64,000 nucleotides of DNA from Ostreococcus lucimarinus (lineage: Eukaryota), in assembly GCA_000092065.1 (NCBI GenBank), contig CP000590.1, one strand, 5' to 3'. Under the pieces are notes generated by a model. That model was not told the origin of the DNA and made no database searches. It saw nothing but the letters and a program-made list of their open reading frames with translations. Position numbers and translations under genes: made by a program. Positions 52,915-63,189 of the stretch are shown here, piece after piece. How positions within the stretch are numbered: position 1 is the stretch's first letter; every line of letters begins with the position of its first letter.

Positions 52915-54954
52915 ATGTCTCCCGGCGCCGGAGCCGCCGCGCCCGCGCGAACGCCGACCAAGCGTTACGCGCAAGACGGTCTGCTACCCCTGAACCACGC
53001 GCGACCGCCGAAGACGCCGCAAAACGCGGAAGATGGCGCGCGATCCAACACCGCCGCGGACGATCAAAATCTAAAGTCGCCCGCGGATGACGCGACGAAC
53101 GAACCGAGCGTGCGCGACATCGTGCGCGCGAACGCGGAAAGAGCGGGGGCGCGGCTGCGCGCGGAAATGCAGGCGAATGCGCGAAGGGAGGCGGCGAGCT
53201 CGAGCCAGACGCTGGAGGAACAGCACGCGCGGGTGACGGCGTTCTTGGCGACGCACCCACACGCGGGACCGTCATTAGACGCGCACAAGCGCATATATCA
53301 ATTGATAGAGGGATTTCCGACCGTGAAAAAGATGATGGATCGCTCGCCAGGGTTGCGCGGGATGCTCGGGAGCGAACGAGGATTGGCGGAACTGACGCGC
53401 GTGTTGTCCAACGGAGGCGAAGGCTTGGCCGAATTGGCGCAAAGTTTCGGGAGCTTGGATGCGAACGAGAACGGGCACGCGAAGAGTGCGGATGATTACA
53501 TCGCGGATTTAAAGATTCTGGAGCAGGCAAAGATTGAGTTGAGGACGTTTCGCGAGCGACAGGAGAATTACATCACCACCGGTATGGCCGCGCCGGTGGT
53601 GGCGCCGAGCGCCGACGACGACGAGCAGTATTTATTAAGTATCGCGAGACGCGGGACGAACGAAGAAACACCGTCTTATATCGACGTGCATCTTCGCGCA
53701 CAAGCGACGAACATGGATACCGCGGTTCCTTTCGTCATCGCGATTGTAGGCTCGACGCTCGCCGCATTGGGCTTAAATCTATTTTATTTCTTGGTGTCTT
53801 TTGTCACGATCACGGCGTTGATACTCGTGGCGCACCGACATGCGAGTTCGCAAGTGACGTACATGTACGGCAAACGAAGGATAGGTACGTCGGCCGCGAT
53901 GACTGTGCATGCCATAGTGCTCGCGTGTGCGTTGCAGTTTTTCTTTGTGTACGTGCCGTTGTTCTTCGGCGTCGCACCGATGACGTGTTTGATCACTACT
54001 TTTGAGTTTGTTTTCACGCCCTGGTTGTTTTACAAAACATATGTTATCGGTCCGGGCTTCGTGCCCACCGGTGTGAGTGATTTTGCGTCGTGGGCGGCGA
54101 CGATGGAACGCGTGAGCGCGACGCAGGGTGGATCCTCGGTCGCGGAGAACGCATCAAAGATGATGATCAACAACCGATATTGCAAGACTTGTCACTGCGC
54201 CAGGCCGCTGCGGTCGAAGCACTGTCCCTTCTGCAATCGTTGCGTGGAAAAGATGGATCACCACTGCCCGATTACGATGACGTGCATTGGTGCGAGGAAT
54301 CAGCGCTGGTTCTTCATGGCAGTACTCTCGATGTTCATCGGTCAGTGTGGATTTCTGCACGTGAGCCACCTGTTTTACAGGATGCTCGTTGATATCGAAG
54401 CTCCGCGCGTCGGTGGCACTGGATTTATGCCCACAGTCGTGACACATTTTTACGTCGTGTTCAACCGCCCGTTCGGCATGATTTTGTACGCGATTGCTTT
54501 CTTGTTCACGATTTACTGCGCCGGCATCCTCGTACGCATGTTCATCGGCGTCTGCGTGAATCTCACAGTGAACGAGATGGAAAACGCGGCAAGATATGAA
54601 TATCTCCAATCGGGCGATCCTGATCGTCCGTATCGCAACGTCTTCGATGCCGGGCCGCGGATCAATTGCATTCAGTTTTGGCGCGACACCGATAAAAAAC
54701 GCGACTGGGACGGATTTTACGTCGCCGCCAAGGAGAAAAAGGCCGACTTACCCGTGGCGCCAAAATTTAGCTATTCTTGGTTTCACAGCACCGCACCAAG
54801 ATTCTTGCGCGCGGTGTTTCAATTTCACTCCGATACCGTGCGATCGCACGGTCACGGTCACTCGCACGGCCACGGTCACTCGCACGGCCACGGCGACGAA
54901 TGTCAACACGACCATCCGCACTCACTGAACCACCCGGGCGACAGCGCGGTGTGA
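52915..54954 (+). CDS. DHHC-type protein S-acyltransferase with long N-terminal domain and C-terminal (HGHS)n His-rich tail
   Basis: CKTCHCARPLRSKHCPFCNRCVEKMDHHCPITMTCIG (DHHC-CRD). Four or more TM helices. C-terminus HGHGHSHGHGHSHGHGDECQHDHPH. Confidence 0.85.
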   Translation: MSPGAGAAAPARTPTKRYAQDGLLPLNHARPPKTPQNAEDGARSNTAADDQNLKSPADDATNEPSVRDIVRANAERAGARLRAEMQANARREAASSSQTLEEQHARVTAFLATHPHAGPSLDAHKRIYQLIEGFPTVKKMMDRSPGLRGMLGSERGLAELTRVLSNGGEGLAELAQSFGSLDANENGHAKSADDYIADLKILEQAKIELRTFRERQENYITTGMAAPVVAPSADDDEQYLLSIARRGTNEETPSYIDVHLRAQATNMDTAVPFVIAIVGSTLAALGLNLFYFLVSFVTITALILVAHRHASSQVTYMYGKRRIGTSAAMTVHAIVLACALQFFFVYVPLFFGVAPMTCLITTFEFVFTPWLFYKTYVIGPGFVPTGVSDFASWAATMERVSATQGGSSVAENASKMMINNRYCKTCHCARPLRSKHCPFCNRCVEKMDHHCPITMTCIGARNQRWFFMAVLSMFIGQCGFLHVSHLFYRMLVDIEAPRVGGTGFMPTVVTHFYVVFNRPFGMILYAIAFLFTIYCAGILVRMFIGVCVNLTVNEMENAARYEYLQSGDPDRPYRNVFDAGPRINCIQFWRDTDKKRDWDGFYVAAKEKKADLPVAPKFSYSWFHSTAPRFLRAVFQFHSDTVRSHGHGHSHGHGHSHGHGDECQHDHPHSLNHPGDSAV

Positions 54955-55112: not shown

Positions 55113-57266
55113 ATGTCGGCTTCGAAACGTCCCGGCGCGCGTCCGCGTGCGCACGCGCGCCTCGACGATCGCACCGCCTTCGCTTACGACCTTGAGGCTG
55201 CCAATTACGACGACGACGCGAGTAAGTACGGCAAACGTCGTCGTTCCAGTCGCCATGGATTTGCCAACTGTAATCAGTTTTTGAACACTCTGCGCGCGCT
55301 ATTCGCGCCCACGAGTCGCGTCAACGTCGCACGTTTATGCTGCGCGATCGCAGTGACTGTATTGCTCGCGCAAGTGGCGTCGAAATCGTCGGAGACGGCG
55401 TCGCCGACGCGCGTGGGTACGGAATTAGATTTGGGTTTGCTGCAGGTTGAACCTCCAAAGGGACGCCGAGGCGAAGCCTTGGCGCCGAGCGCGACGAAAC
55501 GATACGCGAAGAGCGCGGATGATTTGCGACGAACGAACGGAGGGTACAGTAGTGGTGCTCCGCGGAACAGGGCGAAGCTGATCCCGCGAATCGTGCATCA
55601 GACGTTCAAGTCGCGCGGGACGCTCACGGAGAAGGACAAGGCGATGATGCAGACGTGGCGAGCGCAGAATCCAGAGTGGGAGATACGGTTCTACGACGAC
55701 GAGGACTGCACGCGGTTCGTGCAGGAGCATTTTCCGGATTATTACGATGCGTATGCGGCGTTGGTGAAGAAGGTAGAACGGAGCGATTTCTTTCGGTATT
55801 TGGTGATTTTGAAGCACGGCGGCGTGTACGCGGACATCGACACTGAGTGTCGAAAGCCTTTGGATGATATGATCGATGCGAAGGACACACTGATCGTCGG
55901 CTGGGAGAACGAGTTCGAATCAGACGCAAAGGCGTACTCGAGACACTTCGTGCGAAGACGACAAGTGTTGAATTGGGCGTTCGCGGGCGCGCCAGGGCAT
56001 CCCGCGCTCCTCGCCGTCGCCGAACACATCAACGCTGGTGCGAAGCGAGTGTTCACCAAGGCTTCGAATCGTAACACGCTAGAGCGTACGGGACCGGGTG
56101 CGTTTACTGATACCATCATGTCGCACTTTGAAGGGCTTCGTACGGGTGGGAAGACGTTTTGGAACGTTCGAGTGTTGCCGAAAGTCGTGCTCGGCACGCA
56201 TCCGCTCGGCGAGGAGGGCGTGAGCCAAAAACACCCAGACGTCGTCATCGCGCACAGATACTCGGGTGGGTGGAAGAAAAAAACTGGCTGGAATGGGAAG
56301 AGGCGCTGGTATGACCACATCGCGATTCTCTGGCACTCGATCATGAGCGATCTTCCGGCGTACCGCGAGAAGCTTGCGGCGCGAGACGAGCACTTTCAAA
56401 TGCCCTTGGTCGATCCGAAGAGGGAGTACCCGGTGACAGCGCTCTGGGAGCCCGCGTTCGATCTCATGACGCCATTGGTTGGCACGATGGAGGAAAACGA
56501 CGCGTCATCAAAAAGCGAGCATCGCAGCGCGGAAGGGTACTGGTTGACACTGTACGGTAGACCGAAAGTGGTGACGCACAGCCCTCTGCGCGCCGGGCAA
56601 AATCCGGCGGAAATCCTTTTTGCCGGTTTGGAGCGACACGCAGGGAAACACATTCCTGAGCGCGCCGTCTTTATTGATATTGGTGCCGGTTTAGGGTATT
56701 ATTCCAACGCAGCCGCATCCCACGGGGACGACGTGTACTCGTACGAGTGGGATGAGACGTTATTAGCAAACTTTAAGACGTCAGTTGAGTACAACAACTT
56801 TGGCGACCATGTGAAAATCAGCGCGGATTTGGGCGAATTGAAGAGCGGCGAGGCGTTTAGGGATATGCTTCTCAAGACGAAAAAGATAGACGCCATGCGT
56901 ATCGCAGGTCGAGGGTATGAGATGGACATTTTAGACGGTTTCAAGATGTTTGTGGCGGCGGGTGATTTTCCTATGGCGTTACTTTTGGAGATGCGCCCGG
57001 CGCTCATTGAGGCGTCAACAAAGCATTCGACCGAGGACATCATCGCCATGTTTCAGTACTTGTGGAGCAATGGCTACACTGATATTGGGCACGTGGGTCC
57101 GGCGTGTGATGGGCGGGGCGTGCGCAAAATCAAGACAAAAGGGCTTAAAAGTCAGTTTGAGAACACGGCGTGGTGCAGAATCGACATTGCGAGCGTCAAA
57201 GGCGTCCTCAGCGCCATGAGCGAGGATGAGTTTGAAACCATCATCATGTTCTCAGATAGACATTGA
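55113..57266 (+). CDS. Type-II membrane glycosyltransferase (GT32 / Och1-like, Gly_transf_sug) fused to a C-terminal FkbM-family methyltransferase domain
   Basis: Signal-anchor VARLCCAIAVTVLLAQVA. GT32 core IPRIVHQTFKS...WEIRFYDDEDC...RSDFFRYLVILKHGGVYADIDTEC (DxD-like). C-terminal half VFIDIGAGLGYYSNAAASHGDDVYSYEWDE...MRIAGRGYEMDILDG resembles Methyltransf_21/FkbM. The ORF-track start at 54777 overlaps the DHHC gene, so the Met at 55113 is preferred. Confidence 0.7.
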   Translation: MSASKRPGARPRAHARLDDRTAFAYDLEAANYDDDASKYGKRRRSSRHGFANCNQFLNTLRALFAPTSRVNVARLCCAIAVTVLLAQVASKSSETASPTRVGTELDLGLLQVEPPKGRRGEALAPSATKRYAKSADDLRRTNGGYSSGAPRNRAKLIPRIVHQTFKSRGTLTEKDKAMMQTWRAQNPEWEIRFYDDEDCTRFVQEHFPDYYDAYAALVKKVERSDFFRYLVILKHGGVYADIDTECRKPLDDMIDAKDTLIVGWENEFESDAKAYSRHFVRRRQVLNWAFAGAPGHPALLAVAEHINAGAKRVFTKASNRNTLERTGPGAFTDTIMSHFEGLRTGGKTFWNVRVLPKVVLGTHPLGEEGVSQKHPDVVIAHRYSGGWKKKTGWNGKRRWYDHIAILWHSIMSDLPAYREKLAARDEHFQMPLVDPKREYPVTALWEPAFDLMTPLVGTMEENDASSKSEHRSAEGYWLTLYGRPKVVTHSPLRAGQNPAEILFAGLERHAGKHIPERAVFIDIGAGLGYYSNAAASHGDDVYSYEWDETLLANFKTSVEYNNFGDHVKISADLGELKSGEAFRDMLLKTKKIDAMRIAGRGYEMDILDGFKMFVAAGDFPMALLLEMRPALIEASTKHSTEDIIAMFQYLWSNGYTDIGHVGPACDGRGVRKIKTKGLKSQFENTAWCRIDIASVKGVLSAMSEDEFETIIMFSDRH

Positions 57267-57271
57267 ATCGT

Positions 57272-58063
57272 TTATTTATTTATTCGCGTTGGACTATTGA
57301 GATAAGTCGTGCGCGCCTTCGCCGCGCGTCGTTTGAAACTCACCTCACGGCGTTCGGCGTCCTCCATCGCGCGTCGCCGCCCCTCCTCCGCGCGCGCGTC
57401 CGCTTTAAGTCTGCGCGATCTTGCGAGTTCTATCTCGTTTCGACGCTGCTTTCTGACCTTGTTTTCGACTACCACCTTGTGTGGCGCGATCGGAAGTGCG
57501 ACGATCGCGTCGGACATCTTCTCTGGGGGGCGCAGCGTTCGTGCGGCTTCGCGAAGTTGATCGTCGGCGACCAGGCGCAACGTCTGATACACCTCTTCCT
57601 CCCACGAGCGTCCTCGCCGACGTGCACAATCGAACGTGCGCGCGCACTCTGACTTGACGTGTGCGCACGTCGCATCGCGATCGTCCGAACACTCGCTCTC
57701 AATGCGCGCGAAGACGATGGCTTTGAGCGTCAACGTCGCGAGCCCACTCGCTGGCGCGCAGTCGAGCTCGACGAATCCTCGCAACAAGCGAAACAATCCA
57801 CCGCGAGCGAGGCGCGCGACACTCGGGGCTGGATCGCGACACACGCGCGCGCATACTCTGATGACGTCTCGAACGACAGTTTCGTCGTCACCCGCGACCG
57901 TTGCAGACGCTACGCACGCGCACGCCGCCTCGAGAGCCGCGGTCAACGCCGCGAGGCGAACAGCGATGGGTCCGTCAAGGTAGCGCGTCGCACTTTGCAC
58001 GCGCTCCGCCAACGACGCATCACATTTGTCAATTCCTGTAATCGCTAAGATGGCACCATGCAT
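57272..58063 (-). CDS. Hypothetical protein with basic coiled-coil C-terminus
   Basis: Biased codons. C-terminal KVVVENKVRKQRRNEIELARSRRLKADARAEEGRRRAMEDAERRE. Its stop lies only 6 bp from the stop of the convergent GT32 gene. Family not recognised. Confidence 0.4.
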   Translation of the reverse strand: MHGAILAITGIDKCDASLAERVQSATRYLDGPIAVRLAALTAALEAACACVASATVAGDDETVVRDVIRVCARVCRDPAPSVARLARGGLFRLLRGFVELDCAPASGLATLTLKAIVFARIESECSDDRDATCAHVKSECARTFDCARRRGRSWEEEVYQTLRLVADDQLREAARTLRPPEKMSDAIVALPIAPHKVVVENKVRKQRRNEIELARSRRLKADARAEEGRRRAMEDAERREVSFKRRAAKARTTYLNSPTRINK

Positions 58064-58165: not shown

Positions 58166-58924
58166 TCATTCGTTCCTGATATCGCTCAGGATGTTTTCGA
58201 TATCATCCTTCGTAACGACGCCATCGGCGCCCTTTTGCGCAGCCAAACCGGACAGTCTCTGCATGAGCTTATCCTTGAACCCGGCGAACGCGCTCGCCAT
58301 GTTCATCTGCTGATTCATCGGAAGCGTGGCGAACGCCGCCATCGAGGCGTTTTCCAAACTCTCTCCACTCGCCGCATCGAGCGCACCTTGCGCCTCCAAT
58401 ATCTCCCGCATCGTCGTCGGTACGTCCGCGCCGCACCCATCGCCCTCGCACTCGTCGTCATCGTCATCGTCGTCGCCCTCGCGTCGCCAACGAAACACCC
58501 CGTCCTCGTCGGCGTGCGTCAGCTCGCGCGCCTCTCCGCTCAGAAACGACACCTTCCGCAATTCCGCCTCGAACCCATCCCGCGCGTCGTACAACAACGC
58601 GAACGCCGTCCCCGCCTTCGCCTCCCCCTCCGCGTCCCCTTCGCACACGACGCACGGCCACCACGTCACCGCGACTTCGGTTTCGTCCTCGTCTCGCGCC
58701 TCGCCGTCCTCGCCCCCCTCCCCCCGTCCCGGTTCCACCTCCCACTGCACCTCCAACCGATCGCCCGCGCGCACGCGCCTCCCGAACCGATCCACCGCCA
58801 CCTCGACCGCCGCGCGTCCGTCGCTCGCCGCGTCGTCCGCCCTCGCGCGCTTCACCGCCGCCCCGTCGTCCCTCGTCGCGTCTTCGCCATCCTCGCGTTC
58901 GCGTCGCACCGTCGCGCTCGACAT
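58166..58924 (-). CDS. Hypothetical acidic nuclear-type protein (possible Tudor/Agenet-like barrel)
   Basis: RFGRRVRAGDRLEVQWEVEPG...VAVTWWPCVVCEGD...AFALLYDARDGFEAELRKVSFL beta-rich segment. Poly-Asp run. Conserved-looking C-terminus ...KDDIENILSDIRNE. Unassigned. Confidence 0.4.
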   Translation of the reverse strand: MSSATVRREREDGEDATRDDGAAVKRARADDAASDGRAAVEVAVDRFGRRVRAGDRLEVQWEVEPGRGEGGEDGEARDEDETEVAVTWWPCVVCEGDAEGEAKAGTAFALLYDARDGFEAELRKVSFLSGEARELTHADEDGVFRWRREGDDDDDDDECEGDGCGADVPTTMREILEAQGALDAASGESLENASMAAFATLPMNQQMNMASAFAGFKDKLMQRLSGLAAQKGADGVVTKDDIENILSDIRNE

Positions 58925-59172: not shown

Positions 59173-60192
59173 TTGCCGCGCGTCGACCGCGACGCGCGAC
59201 ACACGACGACGACGACGACGATGATGACGACGACGACGACGACGACGACGCTGACGACGCTGACGACGGCGACGCGAGGGACGGCGCGACGCGCGACGCG
59301 AACGGTCGCGCGCGTCGCGCGACCGACTTTCGCGAGGGCGACCGCGGTCGGCGGGGCGTCGCGGACGCGAACGACGCGCGCGCGACGGGGCGGCGCGGTG
59401 GTGACGCGCGCGGACGCGCTGGCGCCGCCGGCGGTGTTCGACGCGGCGTGCGCGGCGAGCGAGAAGAAGAGCGCGCAGGCGCCGACGACGACGCTGACGC
59501 TGGGGTTCGCGGCGGGGGCGTTGATTGGCTTGGGCGCGCTGCTCATGACGTGCGTGGGGGGGGCGTCGCCGGCGTTGGCGGCGAATAATCCCGGGTTGAG
59601 CGCGTTCGTGAAAGGCGCGATCGGGCTCCCGGCGGGGCTGACGATGGTGATTCTGACGGGCGCGGAGCTGTTCACGGGGAACGTCTTCGTGATGCTGAGC
59701 GGGGCGCTGAACGGCGTCGCGAACGAGCGTCAAGTGGCGCGGTCGTGGGCGCTTTCGTACGCTGGGAACTTTGCGGGCTCGGTGTTCATGGCGTACATGG
59801 CGTACACGGCGATGACGGCGGCGTCGCCGGCGGCGAGCGCGGCGGCGGTGGGGATCGCCACGGCGAAGGCGTCGCTGCCGTTTGTCGCGGCGTTCACCAA
59901 GGGCGTGTTGTGCAACTGGCTCGTGTGTCTCGCTGTTTGGGGAACGATGGCGACGACGTCGGTGGCGGGGAAGATTTTGGCGATCTTTTGGCCCATCACC
60001 ATGTTCGTCGCGCTCGGTTTCGAGCACAGCGTGGCGAACATGTTTTTGATTCCGCACGGGATGCTCCTCGGCGCAAACGTTTCGTGGGCGCAGATGATGA
60101 CGGGCAACATCATTCCGGTGACGCTAGGGAACATCGTCGGCGCCGCAGTCTTCGTCGCGGGCGTGCACTGGCTCGCGTACGGTAAGAAGTGA
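59173..60192 (+). CDS. NAR1: Formate/nitrite transporter (FNT) family, NAR1-type putative chloroplast nitrite channel
   Basis: FNT signature regions LTMVILTGAELFTGNVFVM and LCNWLVCLAVWG...GFEHSVANMF. Six TM helices. N-terminal transit-peptide-like region including a poly-Thr tract encoded by an (ACG)n repeat at about 59203-59262. Confidence 0.85.
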   Translation: MPRVDRDARHTTTTTTMMTTTTTTTTLTTLTTATRGTARRATRTVARVARPTFARATAVGGASRTRTTRARRGGAVVTRADALAPPAVFDAACAASEKKSAQAPTTTLTLGFAAGALIGLGALLMTCVGGASPALAANNPGLSAFVKGAIGLPAGLTMVILTGAELFTGNVFVMLSGALNGVANERQVARSWALSYAGNFAGSVFMAYMAYTAMTAASPAASAAAVGIATAKASLPFVAAFTKGVLCNWLVCLAVWGTMATTSVAGKILAIFWPITMFVALGFEHSVANMFLIPHGMLLGANVSWAQMMTGNIIPVTLGNIVGAAVFVAGVHWLAYGKK

Positions 60193-60285: not shown

Positions 60286-63189
60286 CTAATAGCGGATGAT
60301 GGCGTCTTCGGGATAACCGAGCGCTTTCAGCGCTGGAATGCACGTGTCTTCCTCGAACGCAGGTGGCCCACACATCACGGCGATGTGCGACGAACCGTTG
60401 GACGGGAAGCCGTGTTGTTGGATGATGGGCAAACTTATGCGCCCGTACGTGACGCGATCCGAGCTCCACTCCGGGCCAGTCTTCCTGTCCGCCGCCCACG
60501 TCTCCTTGGAAATCATGTAGTGCACTTTAAACCGCCCCTTATGCTCGCGCTCGAGACGATCGAGGGTATACTTCAATAGCACATCGTCTTCCGTTTTGTT
60601 GGCGTAAATGAAGGAAAGTTCCGTTTCGTCCTTCTCGTCCGCGAGAACGGCGACGATGAGTTGCAACATCGGCGCGACGCCCGTGCCGCCGCCCAAGAGC
60701 GTCATCTTCTTCACCGGCGGCAAGTCTTTTTTGTCGATGCTAAACAATCCCTGACCGAGATACTTGATGTGACCAACTGGGCCTTTGACGTCAATCTTGT
60801 CACCCTCGTTGAGATGGTGAAGGTATTGTGTCAACGCCCCGCCCTCGGGGTACGCTTCGTGGACGTCGGAATAATAAATCTTAATCACCAGTTCCACAGC
60901 CCCAAGGGTGCCGTTGAGCGAGGAAGGCGTGTACGCGCGCATCACCTTCTTGCCATTCCACTCGCCTCGTAAATATACATGATAACCCACGGGCATACCA
61001 CACTGATGCTCGTCGCTTTCGAGCTTCAAACGCAAAAGAATGGAATCGTGCGACAGCGGAATTTTGTTTTCAATCTTGAGCTGTAACCATTTCTTCGGGT
61101 TCAGCCCGAGTGGAGCGTTTTCGGGCACGATATGCTTTGCACCCGCCCACATGCGATCGAAAGCCGCCGCTTCCGCGGCTTCACCGAGTAACATCTGGCC
61201 GAACGCCTCCTTGTGTTCTTCGTAAAACTTGACGAGATGCACCGGGCCACGTTTGGGCATCGCCGGGAACTCACGCCTGGGCTCGGTTTCGACTCGCTCA
61301 ATTTCGACCGACACATCACTTGAAGCCGCCTGATCTTCCGCACTTCCGACGTCGCCGATATAAAAAGGTTCGAGCTGCTTCCAAGCCTTGGCGCTGTGCA
61401 CGGCTTCGAAATCCTCCGTGGTGTCTTCGCCCGCATTCATGGTAATACTCGCATTACCTCCCGGATGCAGACCTTCCTTCAAGTACGCGTTGACGTCATA
61501 CACCTTACCTTTAACGACAATCCAGCAGTCGTCTTCAGTGTTGTGTTTCTCCACCTCCTCCATGGTGATGTATCTGACATTTTTCTTCGGCGCGGCGGCG
61601 ACGACGGGCGCTTCGTCGGCGGCGTCATTCTTCTGCGAAACTTCTACTTTCTCCGTGTTTACGATCGTCACTTGCACTTCTGAGGCACTCGCACCCACAT
61701 GCCGTTCTTCACCCGCTCGCGCGGCTTCGAGCGCTTCGATCACTGGCTTCCATCCGCCGGCTTCGTTACCCATCCAGCCACCCTTGAGCGCGCCCGGCTC
61801 CGTCGGATGTTCGCATCGAATGTACTTTTGTGCTCTATCGCTCAGCGCCGCGACCGACAGCTTCACGCGGAAGTAGCAATTATTGCCCATACCCATGAGA
61901 TTCCACGTAAAATCTCGCGGCTGCGTGTTGTTCGCTTCGTCCCACGCCCGACACATCACCTCCTTGGCGCTCGCGAGTTCGACGGTGGCGACGTCCAAAT
62001 CCCAAAAGATCCAGCACCAGTGCTTGCCGTACATCGTCGGTGCGAATGGACGACGAATGTTGGCCAATCTCCAGGTGTAACCACCGTCAAGGCTCACCTC
62101 AACGCGCGTGATCGCGCGTCCTCCGCCCGTGTACGCGTACCCTTTCACTTCGTACCGCTCGCGGTCGAGCGGCACGCACTCGTCGTGCGCGGGCGACGCG
62201 ATGGCGCTGTTGATGTTGAGCTCGTTGAAAATGTACTCCGGCTTCTCCCACCAGTTTTGCTTATCCGCCATCGCCGCGTCCACGCCTGGAGGCATGATGC
62301 GGTTATCGCGGAAATGATAAAAGTTGTCGCTCGGATGCTCCGTGACGCGAATCGTCGTGAGGTACTTGATCATTCTGCCGCCGATGTAGCCGGGGATGAT
62401 CAAGCGCACGGGAAACCCGTGATCGGGTCGAAGTGCCTCACCGTTTTGCGCGTAACACACCATGACATCTTGCGCCGGGTCGAGCGCCTTGCTCAAGGGA
62501 ATGCTCGTTCCGTACGTTCCATCCTTACCCTTCGGCAGCTCCCCCTTCGGTCCCTCAAAGCACACAAAGCGTCGCTTCGCCGTCACCTCGGTCACCCCGC
62601 ACTCGGCGAGCAAAATCCGCAGCGGCACCCCGGTCCAGAGCGAGTTCGACAATCCAGCCGCGCCCCATCCGAATCCAATCGTCTTTTCATACATATTCTG
62701 CTCCTTTCTCCGATTTCCCGCGCACACGAGCAAGCACGGCATCGTCATCGCCGGCTTGCGCAACAACGCGTCCATCCCGTACGTCCTCCCCTTGCCCGAG
62801 TCGCTCACCTCCACCCTCACCTCGTGCGCGTCCCACGCGATGTTCTGCGCCGCCCCGTGATTCCTGACGAAGTGCAGCTCCGCCGGCGTCACGCTCCCCG
62901 CCTCCATCAGCGCTCGCAGCGGAGGCTCGCAGTTGAACGGGTGCGTCCCCGTCAGGCGCACCAGGCTCGGGTGTCTCGCCACCCAGTGATCGGGCGTGTT
63001 CAGGTCGCGTCCGTCCGCGCGCGCGCCCTCCGCTTTGGCCCTCGTCAGCGCGCCGCGATGTCCATCGCACGCCAGCAGCGCGCGCTGCACGTCGACGTCG
63101 TCCATCGGCAGCGCGCGCGGTCCCGCGCGCGCGCATCGCCCGTCCTCGTTTCCCTTGACGCGCGCGCCGCGCGCGCCGAACGCGCCCAT
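60286..63189 (-). CDS. NIA: Assimilatory nitrate reductase [NAD(P)H] (Mo-cofactor, cytochrome b5 heme and FAD/NAD(P)H domains)
   Basis: Moco/dimerisation domain (HFVRNHGAAQ...CAGNRRKE...). Cyt b5 heme domain (DDCWIVVKGKVYDVNAYLKEGLHPGGNASITMNAGEDTTEDFEAVHS). Ferredoxin-reductase-type FAD/NADH domain (RAYTPSS, GGTGVAP, CGPP) at the C-terminus. About 967 aa. Confidence 0.93.
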   Translation of the reverse strand: MGAFGARGARVKGNEDGRCARAGPRALPMDDVDVQRALLACDGHRGALTRAKAEGARADGRDLNTPDHWVARHPSLVRLTGTHPFNCEPPLRALMEAGSVTPAELHFVRNHGAAQNIAWDAHEVRVEVSDSGKGRTYGMDALLRKPAMTMPCLLVCAGNRRKEQNMYEKTIGFGWGAAGLSNSLWTGVPLRILLAECGVTEVTAKRRFVCFEGPKGELPKGKDGTYGTSIPLSKALDPAQDVMVCYAQNGEALRPDHGFPVRLIIPGYIGGRMIKYLTTIRVTEHPSDNFYHFRDNRIMPPGVDAAMADKQNWWEKPEYIFNELNINSAIASPAHDECVPLDRERYEVKGYAYTGGGRAITRVEVSLDGGYTWRLANIRRPFAPTMYGKHWCWIFWDLDVATVELASAKEVMCRAWDEANNTQPRDFTWNLMGMGNNCYFRVKLSVAALSDRAQKYIRCEHPTEPGALKGGWMGNEAGGWKPVIEALEAARAGEERHVGASASEVQVTIVNTEKVEVSQKNDAADEAPVVAAAPKKNVRYITMEEVEKHNTEDDCWIVVKGKVYDVNAYLKEGLHPGGNASITMNAGEDTTEDFEAVHSAKAWKQLEPFYIGDVGSAEDQAASSDVSVEIERVETEPRREFPAMPKRGPVHLVKFYEEHKEAFGQMLLGEAAEAAAFDRMWAGAKHIVPENAPLGLNPKKWLQLKIENKIPLSHDSILLRLKLESDEHQCGMPVGYHVYLRGEWNGKKVMRAYTPSSLNGTLGAVELVIKIYYSDVHEAYPEGGALTQYLHHLNEGDKIDVKGPVGHIKYLGQGLFSIDKKDLPPVKKMTLLGGGTGVAPMLQLIVAVLADEKDETELSFIYANKTEDDVLLKYTLDRLEREHKGRFKVHYMISKETWAADRKTGPEWSSDRVTYGRISLPIIQQHGFPSNGSSHIAVMCGPPAFEEDTCIPALKALGYPEDAIIRY

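Follow-up and report, generated by a model that had tools for sequence, protein, structure and literature searches.

Och1, the initiation-specific α-1,6-mannosyltransferase of fungi (CAZy family GT32; Protein Data Bank (PDB) entry 9n3s), is a type II membrane protein with a GT-A fold and a D-hydrophobic-D motif. Enzymes of the FkbM family (PF05050/TIGR01444) have the class I fold of S-adenosylmethionine (SAM)-dependent methyltransferases, with a D-x-G-A-x-x-G motif I, an A-F-E strand β2, a conserved Asn in an N-G-F helix and a Glu on strand β5. Sugar transfer and sugar methylation are known to meet in a single chain: in the experimentally characterised protein A064R of chlorovirus PBCV-1, two rhamnosyltransferase domains are combined with a class I SAM methyltransferase domain; the protein extends an N-glycan by further sugars, the terminal one of which it subsequently O-methylates (PMC9614988). 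Here we describe a gene in a 64,000-nucleotide stretch of Ostreococcus lucimarinus DNA (contig CP000590.1, assembly GCA_000092065.1; hereafter the window), whose product joins an Och1-like GT32 domain to a divergent, FkbM-related methyltransferase domain. We consider it probable that this product is a bifunctional type II enzyme of the secretory pathway, probably of the Golgi, that adds a sugar to a glycan and O-methylates that glycan.

The algal protein shares with Och1 the (predicted) type II topology, the GT-A fold, the D-hydrophobic-D motif and the residues modelled for binding of GDP-mannose and acceptor. It differs in having a methyltransferase domain at its C-terminus, which Och1 lacks, and the two proteins are only about 18% identical over the structural alignment. 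With the FkbM family it has in common all the features listed above, but the fusion clade to which it belongs is set apart by an N-terminal β-hairpin of its own, by a Cys-containing C-terminal extension and by always standing behind a GT32 domain. The closest functional analogue is A064R, which likewise carries glycosyltransferase (GT) and SAM methyltransferase domains on one polypeptide and comes from a virus of a green alga. A064R differs in being soluble and viral, in having GT domains outside GT32 and in acting on rhamnose of a capsid glycan as its acceptor. An earlier interpretation of this locus made from the DNA letters alone (the sequence-only reading) had stated that no fused enzyme of this kind was described; with A064R characterised as a GT-GT-methyltransferase chain by which the added sugar is also methylated, this was too strong. 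Both domain families are thus already known, as are fusions of glycosyltransferases with sugar methyltransferases. For a GT32-FkbM-like fusion, we found no description in the open-access literature, and what appears to be undescribed is the joining of GT32 to a distinct FkbM-derived subfamily, with extensions of its own and an altered active-site motif, across Chlorophyta.

The complete coding sequence, stop codon included, spans positions 55113..57266 of the plus strand, on which all features of this gene lie. It opens with the ATG at 55113 and continues for 717 codons, free of internal stops, up to the stop at 57264-57266. The start at 55113 is supported by P0001 (717 aa, 99% identical) and P0002 (712 aa, 86% identical), two homologues with full (100%) coverage of the query, and the surroundings of the gene match those in locus L001, which holds the 86%-identical orthologue. 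A longer frame, with TTG 54777 as its first codon, shares sequence with the end of the upstream DHHC gene (52915..54954), and an in-frame extension of the fusion protein in that direction was rejected, as it would enter the DHHC gene, which ends at 54954. Open reading frames (ORFs) on the opposite strand within the fusion gene are without support, and such frames are expected in DNA of 56-60% G+C.

The same architecture recurs widely. In 67 of the 102 homologues a complete C-terminal domain lies directly behind the GT32 domain. The closest homologues come from marine metagenomes. The fused homologues that bear names are all from Chlorophyta: Coccomyxa, Myrmecia, Apatococcus, Parachlorella, Auxenochlorella, Botryococcus, Nannochloris, Bryopsis, Tetraselmis, Cymbomonas, Pyramimonas and Dolichomastix. 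Both domains are also present in transcriptome-derived sequences (P0049 and P0068 from MMETSP, and the Trinity assembly P0134), which argues for one mRNA. The sequence-only reading had proposed that the two domains form a single polypeptide and had suggested looking for the fusion in other Mamiellophyceae. The continuous frame and the transcript-derived homologues bear out the former, and the fusion indeed proved common to other Mamiellophyceae-like and many other chlorophyte sequences. It could still be supposed that the fusion is an artefact, with two genes or an intron read through, just as the C-terminal domain could be supposed to be a tRNA methyltransferase of the TRM5/TYW2 type (discussed below); we regard these two possibilities, even taken together, as hardly credible. 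The frame is continuous, the segment joining the domains is itself conserved, and the same collinear protein is found in the 67 homologues, which come from independent assemblies as well as transcriptomes.

Both halves of the protein are under purifying selection. For the one pair compared by the Nei-Gojobori method, the query and its 86%-identical orthologue in L001, the ratio of nonsynonymous to synonymous substitution rates (dN/dS) was 0.10 for the GT32 domain and likewise 0.10 for the whole methyltransferase region, within which it was 0.11 for the core, 0.086 for the extension in front of the core (aa 431-515) and 0.064 for the C-terminal extension. The structural model of the two domains (568 residues) has a predicted local distance difference test (pLDDT) score of 87.1 and a predicted template modelling (pTM) score of 0.88, and in it the domains are predicted to pack in a fixed arrangement, as one rigid unit. 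In precomputed annotation, fused homologues carry PF04488 only; P0073, which also carries PF02475, is the exception.

The identity of the N-terminal half is supported by profile matches, by structure and by invariant residues. The GT32 domain (Och1-like, GT-A fold) comprises aa 156-430 (55578..56402), and within it the Pfam model Gly_transf_sug (PF04488) matches aa 173-256 (55629..55880) with an E-value of 2.4e-16 and 60.6 bits, well above the cut-off of 23. This score together with the 102 homologues excludes a chance match and confirms that the observation is real. The motifs quoted in the sequence-only reading are all present (HQTFKS at aa 162-167, SDFFRY at 224-229, DIDTE at 241-245 and FIDIGAGLGYYS at 520-531), and its assignment of the first half to GT32, for which it had proposed a search with Gly_transf_sug, holds. 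Yeast Och1 (9n3s, released in 2025) is the best solved relative both by sequence (phmmer E 2.7e-12) and by fold (Foldseek E 5.6e-13, with the 568-residue model); the GT-A toxin glycosyltransferases SetA, YeGT and PaToxG come next. In an alignment of 26 sequences, the columns HQT, DFFR and GG-Y-D-D are invariant. The DxD motif D241-I242-D243 (55833..55841), the predicted metal and nucleotide-sugar binding site, aligns with D187-M188-D189 of Och1, and both of its aspartates are invariant as well (26/26). A hydrophobic residue in the middle of DxD is typical of retaining enzymes, and from these features the GT32 domain looks like a functional retaining enzyme.

The resemblance to Och1 extends to the substrate-binding site. 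We took the roles of Och1 residues from the study in which contacts with the GDP-mannose donor and the N-glycan acceptor were modelled (PMC12312940) and mapped them through the HMMER alignment of 9n3s with the algal protein. Equivalents are present for T103 (in HQT), D139 (YDD), D171 and R174 (both in SDFFRY), D187 and D189 (DID), E243 (GWE), Q260 (RRQ) and H463 (AHRYSGGW), and most of these site residues are invariant in the 26 orthologues. GDP-mannose is, on this pattern, the most likely donor. With regard to the acceptor, one could also envisage that both domains are active on a target other than protein N-glycans, be it a glycolipid headgroup, a polysaccharide or, in the case of methylation, a non-sugar group. 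GT32 is functionally diverse and includes mannosyl-inositol-phosphoceramide synthases of the Sur1/Csg1 type; the hydroxyl methylated by FkbM itself belongs to a macrolide rather than to a sugar; and the fusion family occurs in algae whose surfaces differ greatly, among them naked picoplankton, walled trebouxiophytes and Bryopsis. On the other hand, no solved structure matches better than Och1 in sequence or in fold, even if neither the match nor the residues fix the acceptor, and E243, Q260 and H463, which are among the residues modelled to hold the donor and the N-glycan acceptor, are conserved. Taking both sides into account, we give such a target a rather slim chance.

The C-terminal half contains a class I SAM methyltransferase core, aa 516-655 (56658..57077), preceded by an extension, aa 431-515 (56403..56657), with model strands at 8-12 and 20-24 and invariant P10 and P17. 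The first part of this extension, the β-hairpin YPVTALWEPAFD (profile positions ~1-41, pattern YPV..W.PPFD), is peculiar to the fusion clade. The helices after the hairpin can also be aligned to the FkbM protein P0224, and core-only FkbM relatives start to align at profile positions 42-78, depending on the protein. That the second half has a methyltransferase fold, as the sequence-only reading had claimed, is borne out by the class I SAM fold with its motif I and acidic β2 residue.

To which family this fold belongs was less obvious. Direct scans yielded only sub-threshold matches at motifs I-II (TRM5-TYW2, Erm, KsgA and fkbM_fam), and PF05050 was visible in just 3 of 21 clade members, with a best E-value of 0.0027. 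Against PDB sequences, the profile of the C-terminal domain matched class I methyltransferases of a generic kind, PRMT7 (1.8e-5) among them, at profile positions ~49-141 only, which supports the fold, not the family. The family emerged from searches with an alignment of the domain (A1), used as a profile in HMMER and hhalign. Run exhaustively against 1.84 billion cluster representatives, HMMER matched 112 clusters at E ≤ 1e-30, a number that rose to 3633 at E ≤ 1e-10. One group of matches was full-length (profile ~4-320) and had GT32 in front wherever the protein was long enough to judge. The other covered only the core (profile ~75-255, a few from ~42), was without GT32 and often consisted of tandem multi-domain proteins. 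All ten core-only proteins tested exceeded the gathering score of PF05050, with E-values of 1e-9 to 3e-79, in the very region matched by A1. Their A1 E-values lay between 4.5e-29 and 3e-76 for nine and between 2.5e-23 and 1.3e-25 for the other, the weakest being P0216, P0224 and P0225. P0224 is a single-domain diatom protein with the UniRef name 'Methyltransferase FkbM domain-containing protein', and BLASTP aligned the C-terminal domain of the query with it directly (E 8e-9). Aligned by hhalign with 16 FkbM domains, A1 gave a probability of 99.86% and an E-value of 3.6e-31 over 206 columns; these templates had been picked by similarity to A1, and the independent evidence is their Pfam assignment. 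In BFVD, a library of viral structures, the top match was a Fadolivirus 'Methyltransferase FkbM' (E 1.6e-9), with several FkbM_fam proteins next. Since the nearest non-fusion relatives of its profile are PF05050 domains, the C-terminal domain is, judged by its sequence, a divergent relative or sister clade of FkbM and not a canonical member. Other searches were less productive: tblastn of the domain against phage genomes found just a 58-residue match to motifs I-II in methyltransferases of Streptomyces phages, its profile found no relative in IMG/VR viral contigs, and a second, word-indexed homologue search with the C-terminal domain alignment gave four matches only, probably because generic DIGAG words saturated the candidate list.

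The weak matches raise the question of whether the domain could be a tRNA methyltransferase. Pfam TRM5-TYW2 was the most frequent of them (16 of 21 members, best 8.1e-6), and UniRef names the Myrmecia bisecta orthologue as an enzyme of the wybutosine pathway. However, TRM5/TYW2 (PF02475) was rejected as a candidate: every match fell short of the gathering score (16.1-18.4 bits against a cut-off of 28), and in the query it covered only profile positions 35-103 of 164, corresponding to motifs I-II. Moreover, the predicted lumenal part of a type II protein is incompatible with a tRNA substrate. As for the Myrmecia protein (P0047), its UniRef name, tRNA(Phe) 4-demethylwyosine-modifying enzyme, likely stems from the same weak match to motifs I-II and is probably a propagated misannotation.

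Conservation within the clade, counted over 68 fusion-clade C-terminal domains, singles out the residues expected to bind the cofactor. In motif I, FIDIGAGLGYYS (aa 520-531, 56670..56705), the Asp is present in 67/67 and the glycines and alanine of G-A-G-x-G in 60-66 of 68. The acidic end of strand β2, E545 in YSYEW (56736..56750), is Glu in 63/68; the Glu at the end of β5 is kept in 66/68 and the Asn of Y-N-G-F in all 68. Because motif I, the β2 Glu, the Asn and the β5 Glu are nearly invariant, the SAM pocket looks intact. Beyond the core lies a clade-specific C-terminal extension, aa 656-717 (57078..57263); the alignment of FkbM relatives ends at a GYT motif just before it. Here C665, W687, C688 and E708 are each found in 68/68, H660 in 67/68 and R668 in 64/68. 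The invariance of C665 and C688 suggests a lumenal disulfide.

The topology of the protein was predicted from its N-terminal region. Residues 70-90 (55320..55382) form the sole strongly hydrophobic stretch of the protein, where the Kyte-Doolittle mean over 19 residues peaks at 1.96 (aa 72-90), and in 60 of the 69 fused homologues an equivalent segment lies ahead of the GT32 domain. The tail in front of it, aa 1-69 (55113..55319), is net positive, with 14 K+R against 7 D+E, so that by the positive-inside rule the N-terminus is predicted to be cytosolic and the remainder lumenal. The type II membrane protein with a signal anchor proposed by the sequence-only reading is thus what the hydrophobicity of aa 70-90 and the charge of the preceding tail predict. 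Between anchor and GT32 domain lies a poorly conserved stem, aa 91-155 (55383..55577), with few majority residues in alignment A2; tail and stem together (aa 1-155) evolve fast, with a dN/dS of 0.37 in the same pairwise comparison. From the type II topology and the behaviour of GT32 enzymes, the protein probably resides in the Golgi.

Put together, these features suggest how the enzyme might work. Following a short tail, one anchor and a flexible stem, both catalytic domains would face the lumen. The GT32 domain would add an α-linked hexose, most likely mannose from GDP-mannose, to a lumenal glycan acceptor, after which the neighbouring SAM-dependent domain would O-methylate the same glycan at a hydroxyl, plausibly on the newly added residue. 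The product would be a methyl-capped glycan.

Several observations weigh against this proposal. On the side of the glycosyltransferase, Q263 of Och1 is replaced with Asn in the algal protein, the residue being Gln in most orthologues, and GT32 also holds galactosyl-, N-acetylglucosaminyl- and inositol-phosphoceramide mannosyltransferases, with the donor not readable from sequence. On the side of the methyltransferase, the fusion protein has no PF05050 match at E ≤ 1, TIGR01444 scores only 13.5 bits (E 0.076), its cut-off being 37.7, and no methyltransferase model of Pfam or NCBIfam scores above its curated cut-off. The FkbM signature K-x-D-x-E-G-x-E, which reads 'vKmDvEGyE' in the PF05050-positive relatives, has a degenerate counterpart in the clade, R-I-[GSA]-x-x-G-[WY]-E, represented in the query by M-R-I-A-G-R-G-Y-E (aa 595-603, 56895..56921). 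The position of the Lys is Arg in 68/68 (R596 in the query). That of the Asp is Gly, Ser or Ala in 68/68 and Asp in none, that of the first Glu varies (29 Asp, 11 Arg, 10 Asn and 10 Thr), and the last Glu is retained in 50. The site after β4 is where class I methyltransferases usually build their active site; with the signature Asp lost, the domain would have to rely on different residues for catalysis, unless it has no activity at all. Consequently, of the FkbM assignment made in the sequence-only reading, the kinship stands, as the nearest non-fusion relatives are PF05050 domains, whereas the direct Methyltransf_21 match that it had proposed to look for is absent and the signature after β4 is degenerate. 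As regards the product, no O-methylated glycan of the source organism is documented in the literature searched. A weaker point is that no Chlamydomonas orthologue was seen among the named homologues, names being sparse in the database.

The loss of the signature acidic residues leads to an alternative, namely that the C-terminal domain is a pseudo-methyltransferase, its fold kept as an acceptor-binding, regulatory or oligomerisation module for GT32 that transfers no methyl group. The complete disappearance of the post-β4 Asp and the loss of the first Glu in most sequences speak for this, as does the failure of every methyltransferase model to reach its threshold, and the tight domain packing predicted by the model would suit a structural role too. 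Yet pseudoenzymes usually lose cofactor-binding motifs first, and it is precisely the SAM-binding residues, from the motif I Asp and G-x-G glycines to the β2 Glu, that are near-invariant here. Similarly, a polar set around the expected active site is kept (R596 in 68/68, E626 in 66/68, H660 in 67/68 and R668 in 64/68), and the core is constrained to the same extent as the GT32 domain. We therefore hold an inactive domain to be unlikely and continue to favour an enzyme with two active domains. That R596, E626, H660 and R668 stand in for the lost acidic residues in catalysis is speculation.

Multi-domain proteins offer further comparisons. Among the nearest non-fusion relatives of the methyltransferase core is P0203 (993 aa), with the order FkbM-GT2-FkbM. 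P0126, P0185, P0171 and P0179 have 3 to 5 tandem FkbM domains in a single chain, with 4-5 per chain in P0126 (1456 aa) and P0185 (1438 aa); P0179 shows a PAN-domain match that is sub-threshold only. Like the algal fusion, these proteins couple FkbM-type domains to glycosyltransferase domains or to each other. They differ in keeping the canonical signature, in having GT2 or nothing as the partner and in being without the clade-specific extensions. In BFVD, the fourth-ranking match to the algal methyltransferase (E 1.2e-6) is a domain of A0A5J6VJR2, a 1202-aa Megaviridae 'Capsular polysaccharide synthesis protein'; the Pfam model Caps_synth weakly matches the GT32 domain of the fusion protein. 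Giant viruses may thus carry a comparable fusion of glycosyltransferase and methyltransferase. In a large subgroup of the fused homologues, P0011-P0045 (870-1080 aa), the methyltransferase domain itself is interrupted by a low-complexity charged insertion of 100-250 residues between the β3 region and the strand with the R-I-S motif. The insertion is absent from the Ostreococcus protein, and its presence elsewhere indicates that this loop tolerates very large inserts.

The neighbourhood of the gene is shared with L001, where the order is likewise DHHC gene, fusion gene, two unknown genes, nitrite-transporter-like gene and nitrate reductase. Upstream, at a distance of only 158 bp, the fusion gene is preceded by a gene for a 679-aa DHHC palmitoyltransferase (52915..54954, plus strand; PF01529, E 1.9e-25), the C-terminus of which carries a His-Gly/His-Ser repeat (HGHGHSHGHGHSHGHG) that looks like a metal-binding tail. 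Downstream, two ORFs without a Pfam match lie on the minus strand: one of 263 aa (57272..58063), whose end is separated by 5 bp from the fusion gene's stop codon, and one of 252 aa (58166..58924); L001 has genes of like size on the same strand at both positions. They are followed by part of a nitrate-assimilation cluster 2-3 kb downstream of the fusion gene, namely a formate/nitrite transporter gene (59173..60192, plus strand; PF01226, E 3e-72) and a full-length assimilatory nitrate reductase with Mo-co, cytochrome b5, FAD and NAD domains (60286..63189, minus strand). Such neighbours, and the close packing of genes in the window, are typical of Ostreococcus-like picoalgae.

The function proposed for the fusion protein would fill a gap in the biology of green algae. 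O-methylated N-glycans, including O-methylated mannose, are widespread in chlorophytes (PMC7773692, PMC12507850), and Chlamydomonas methylates the mannose of its N-glycans (PMC7773692). According to a 2020 review, none of the responsible enzymes had been characterised (PMC7773692), and a 2025 review still names none (PMC12507850). A mechanism in which a sugar is added and then methylated fits this widespread methylation of mannose. It is possible, and we put it forward tentatively, that the fusion family is the missing glycan O-methyltransferase of chlorophytes: a Golgi polypeptide that adds α-mannose and immediately caps it with a methyl group, in which Arg596, Glu626, His660 and Arg668 functionally replace the post-β4 Asp and Glu and the extension bears Cys665 and Cys688. 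If so, the methylated mannose of green-algal glycans would come from a class of enzymes that current domain annotation fails to reveal. There is a practical side to this as well. Methylated sugars, O-methylated mannose among them, are a hallmark of the N-glycans of green algae and a concern for the production of biopharmaceuticals in Chlorella and Chlamydomonas, and identification of the O-methyltransferase, with a view to its knock-out, has been explicitly called for (PMC7773692, PMC12507850). The fusion family provides a concrete, conserved, single-gene candidate for algal glycan O-methylation. If its methyltransferase domain is active, the FkbM fold would work without its signature acidic residues, and the fusion protein would be a cellular counterpart of the principle embodied by chlorovirus A064R, in which a sugar is added and then methylated.

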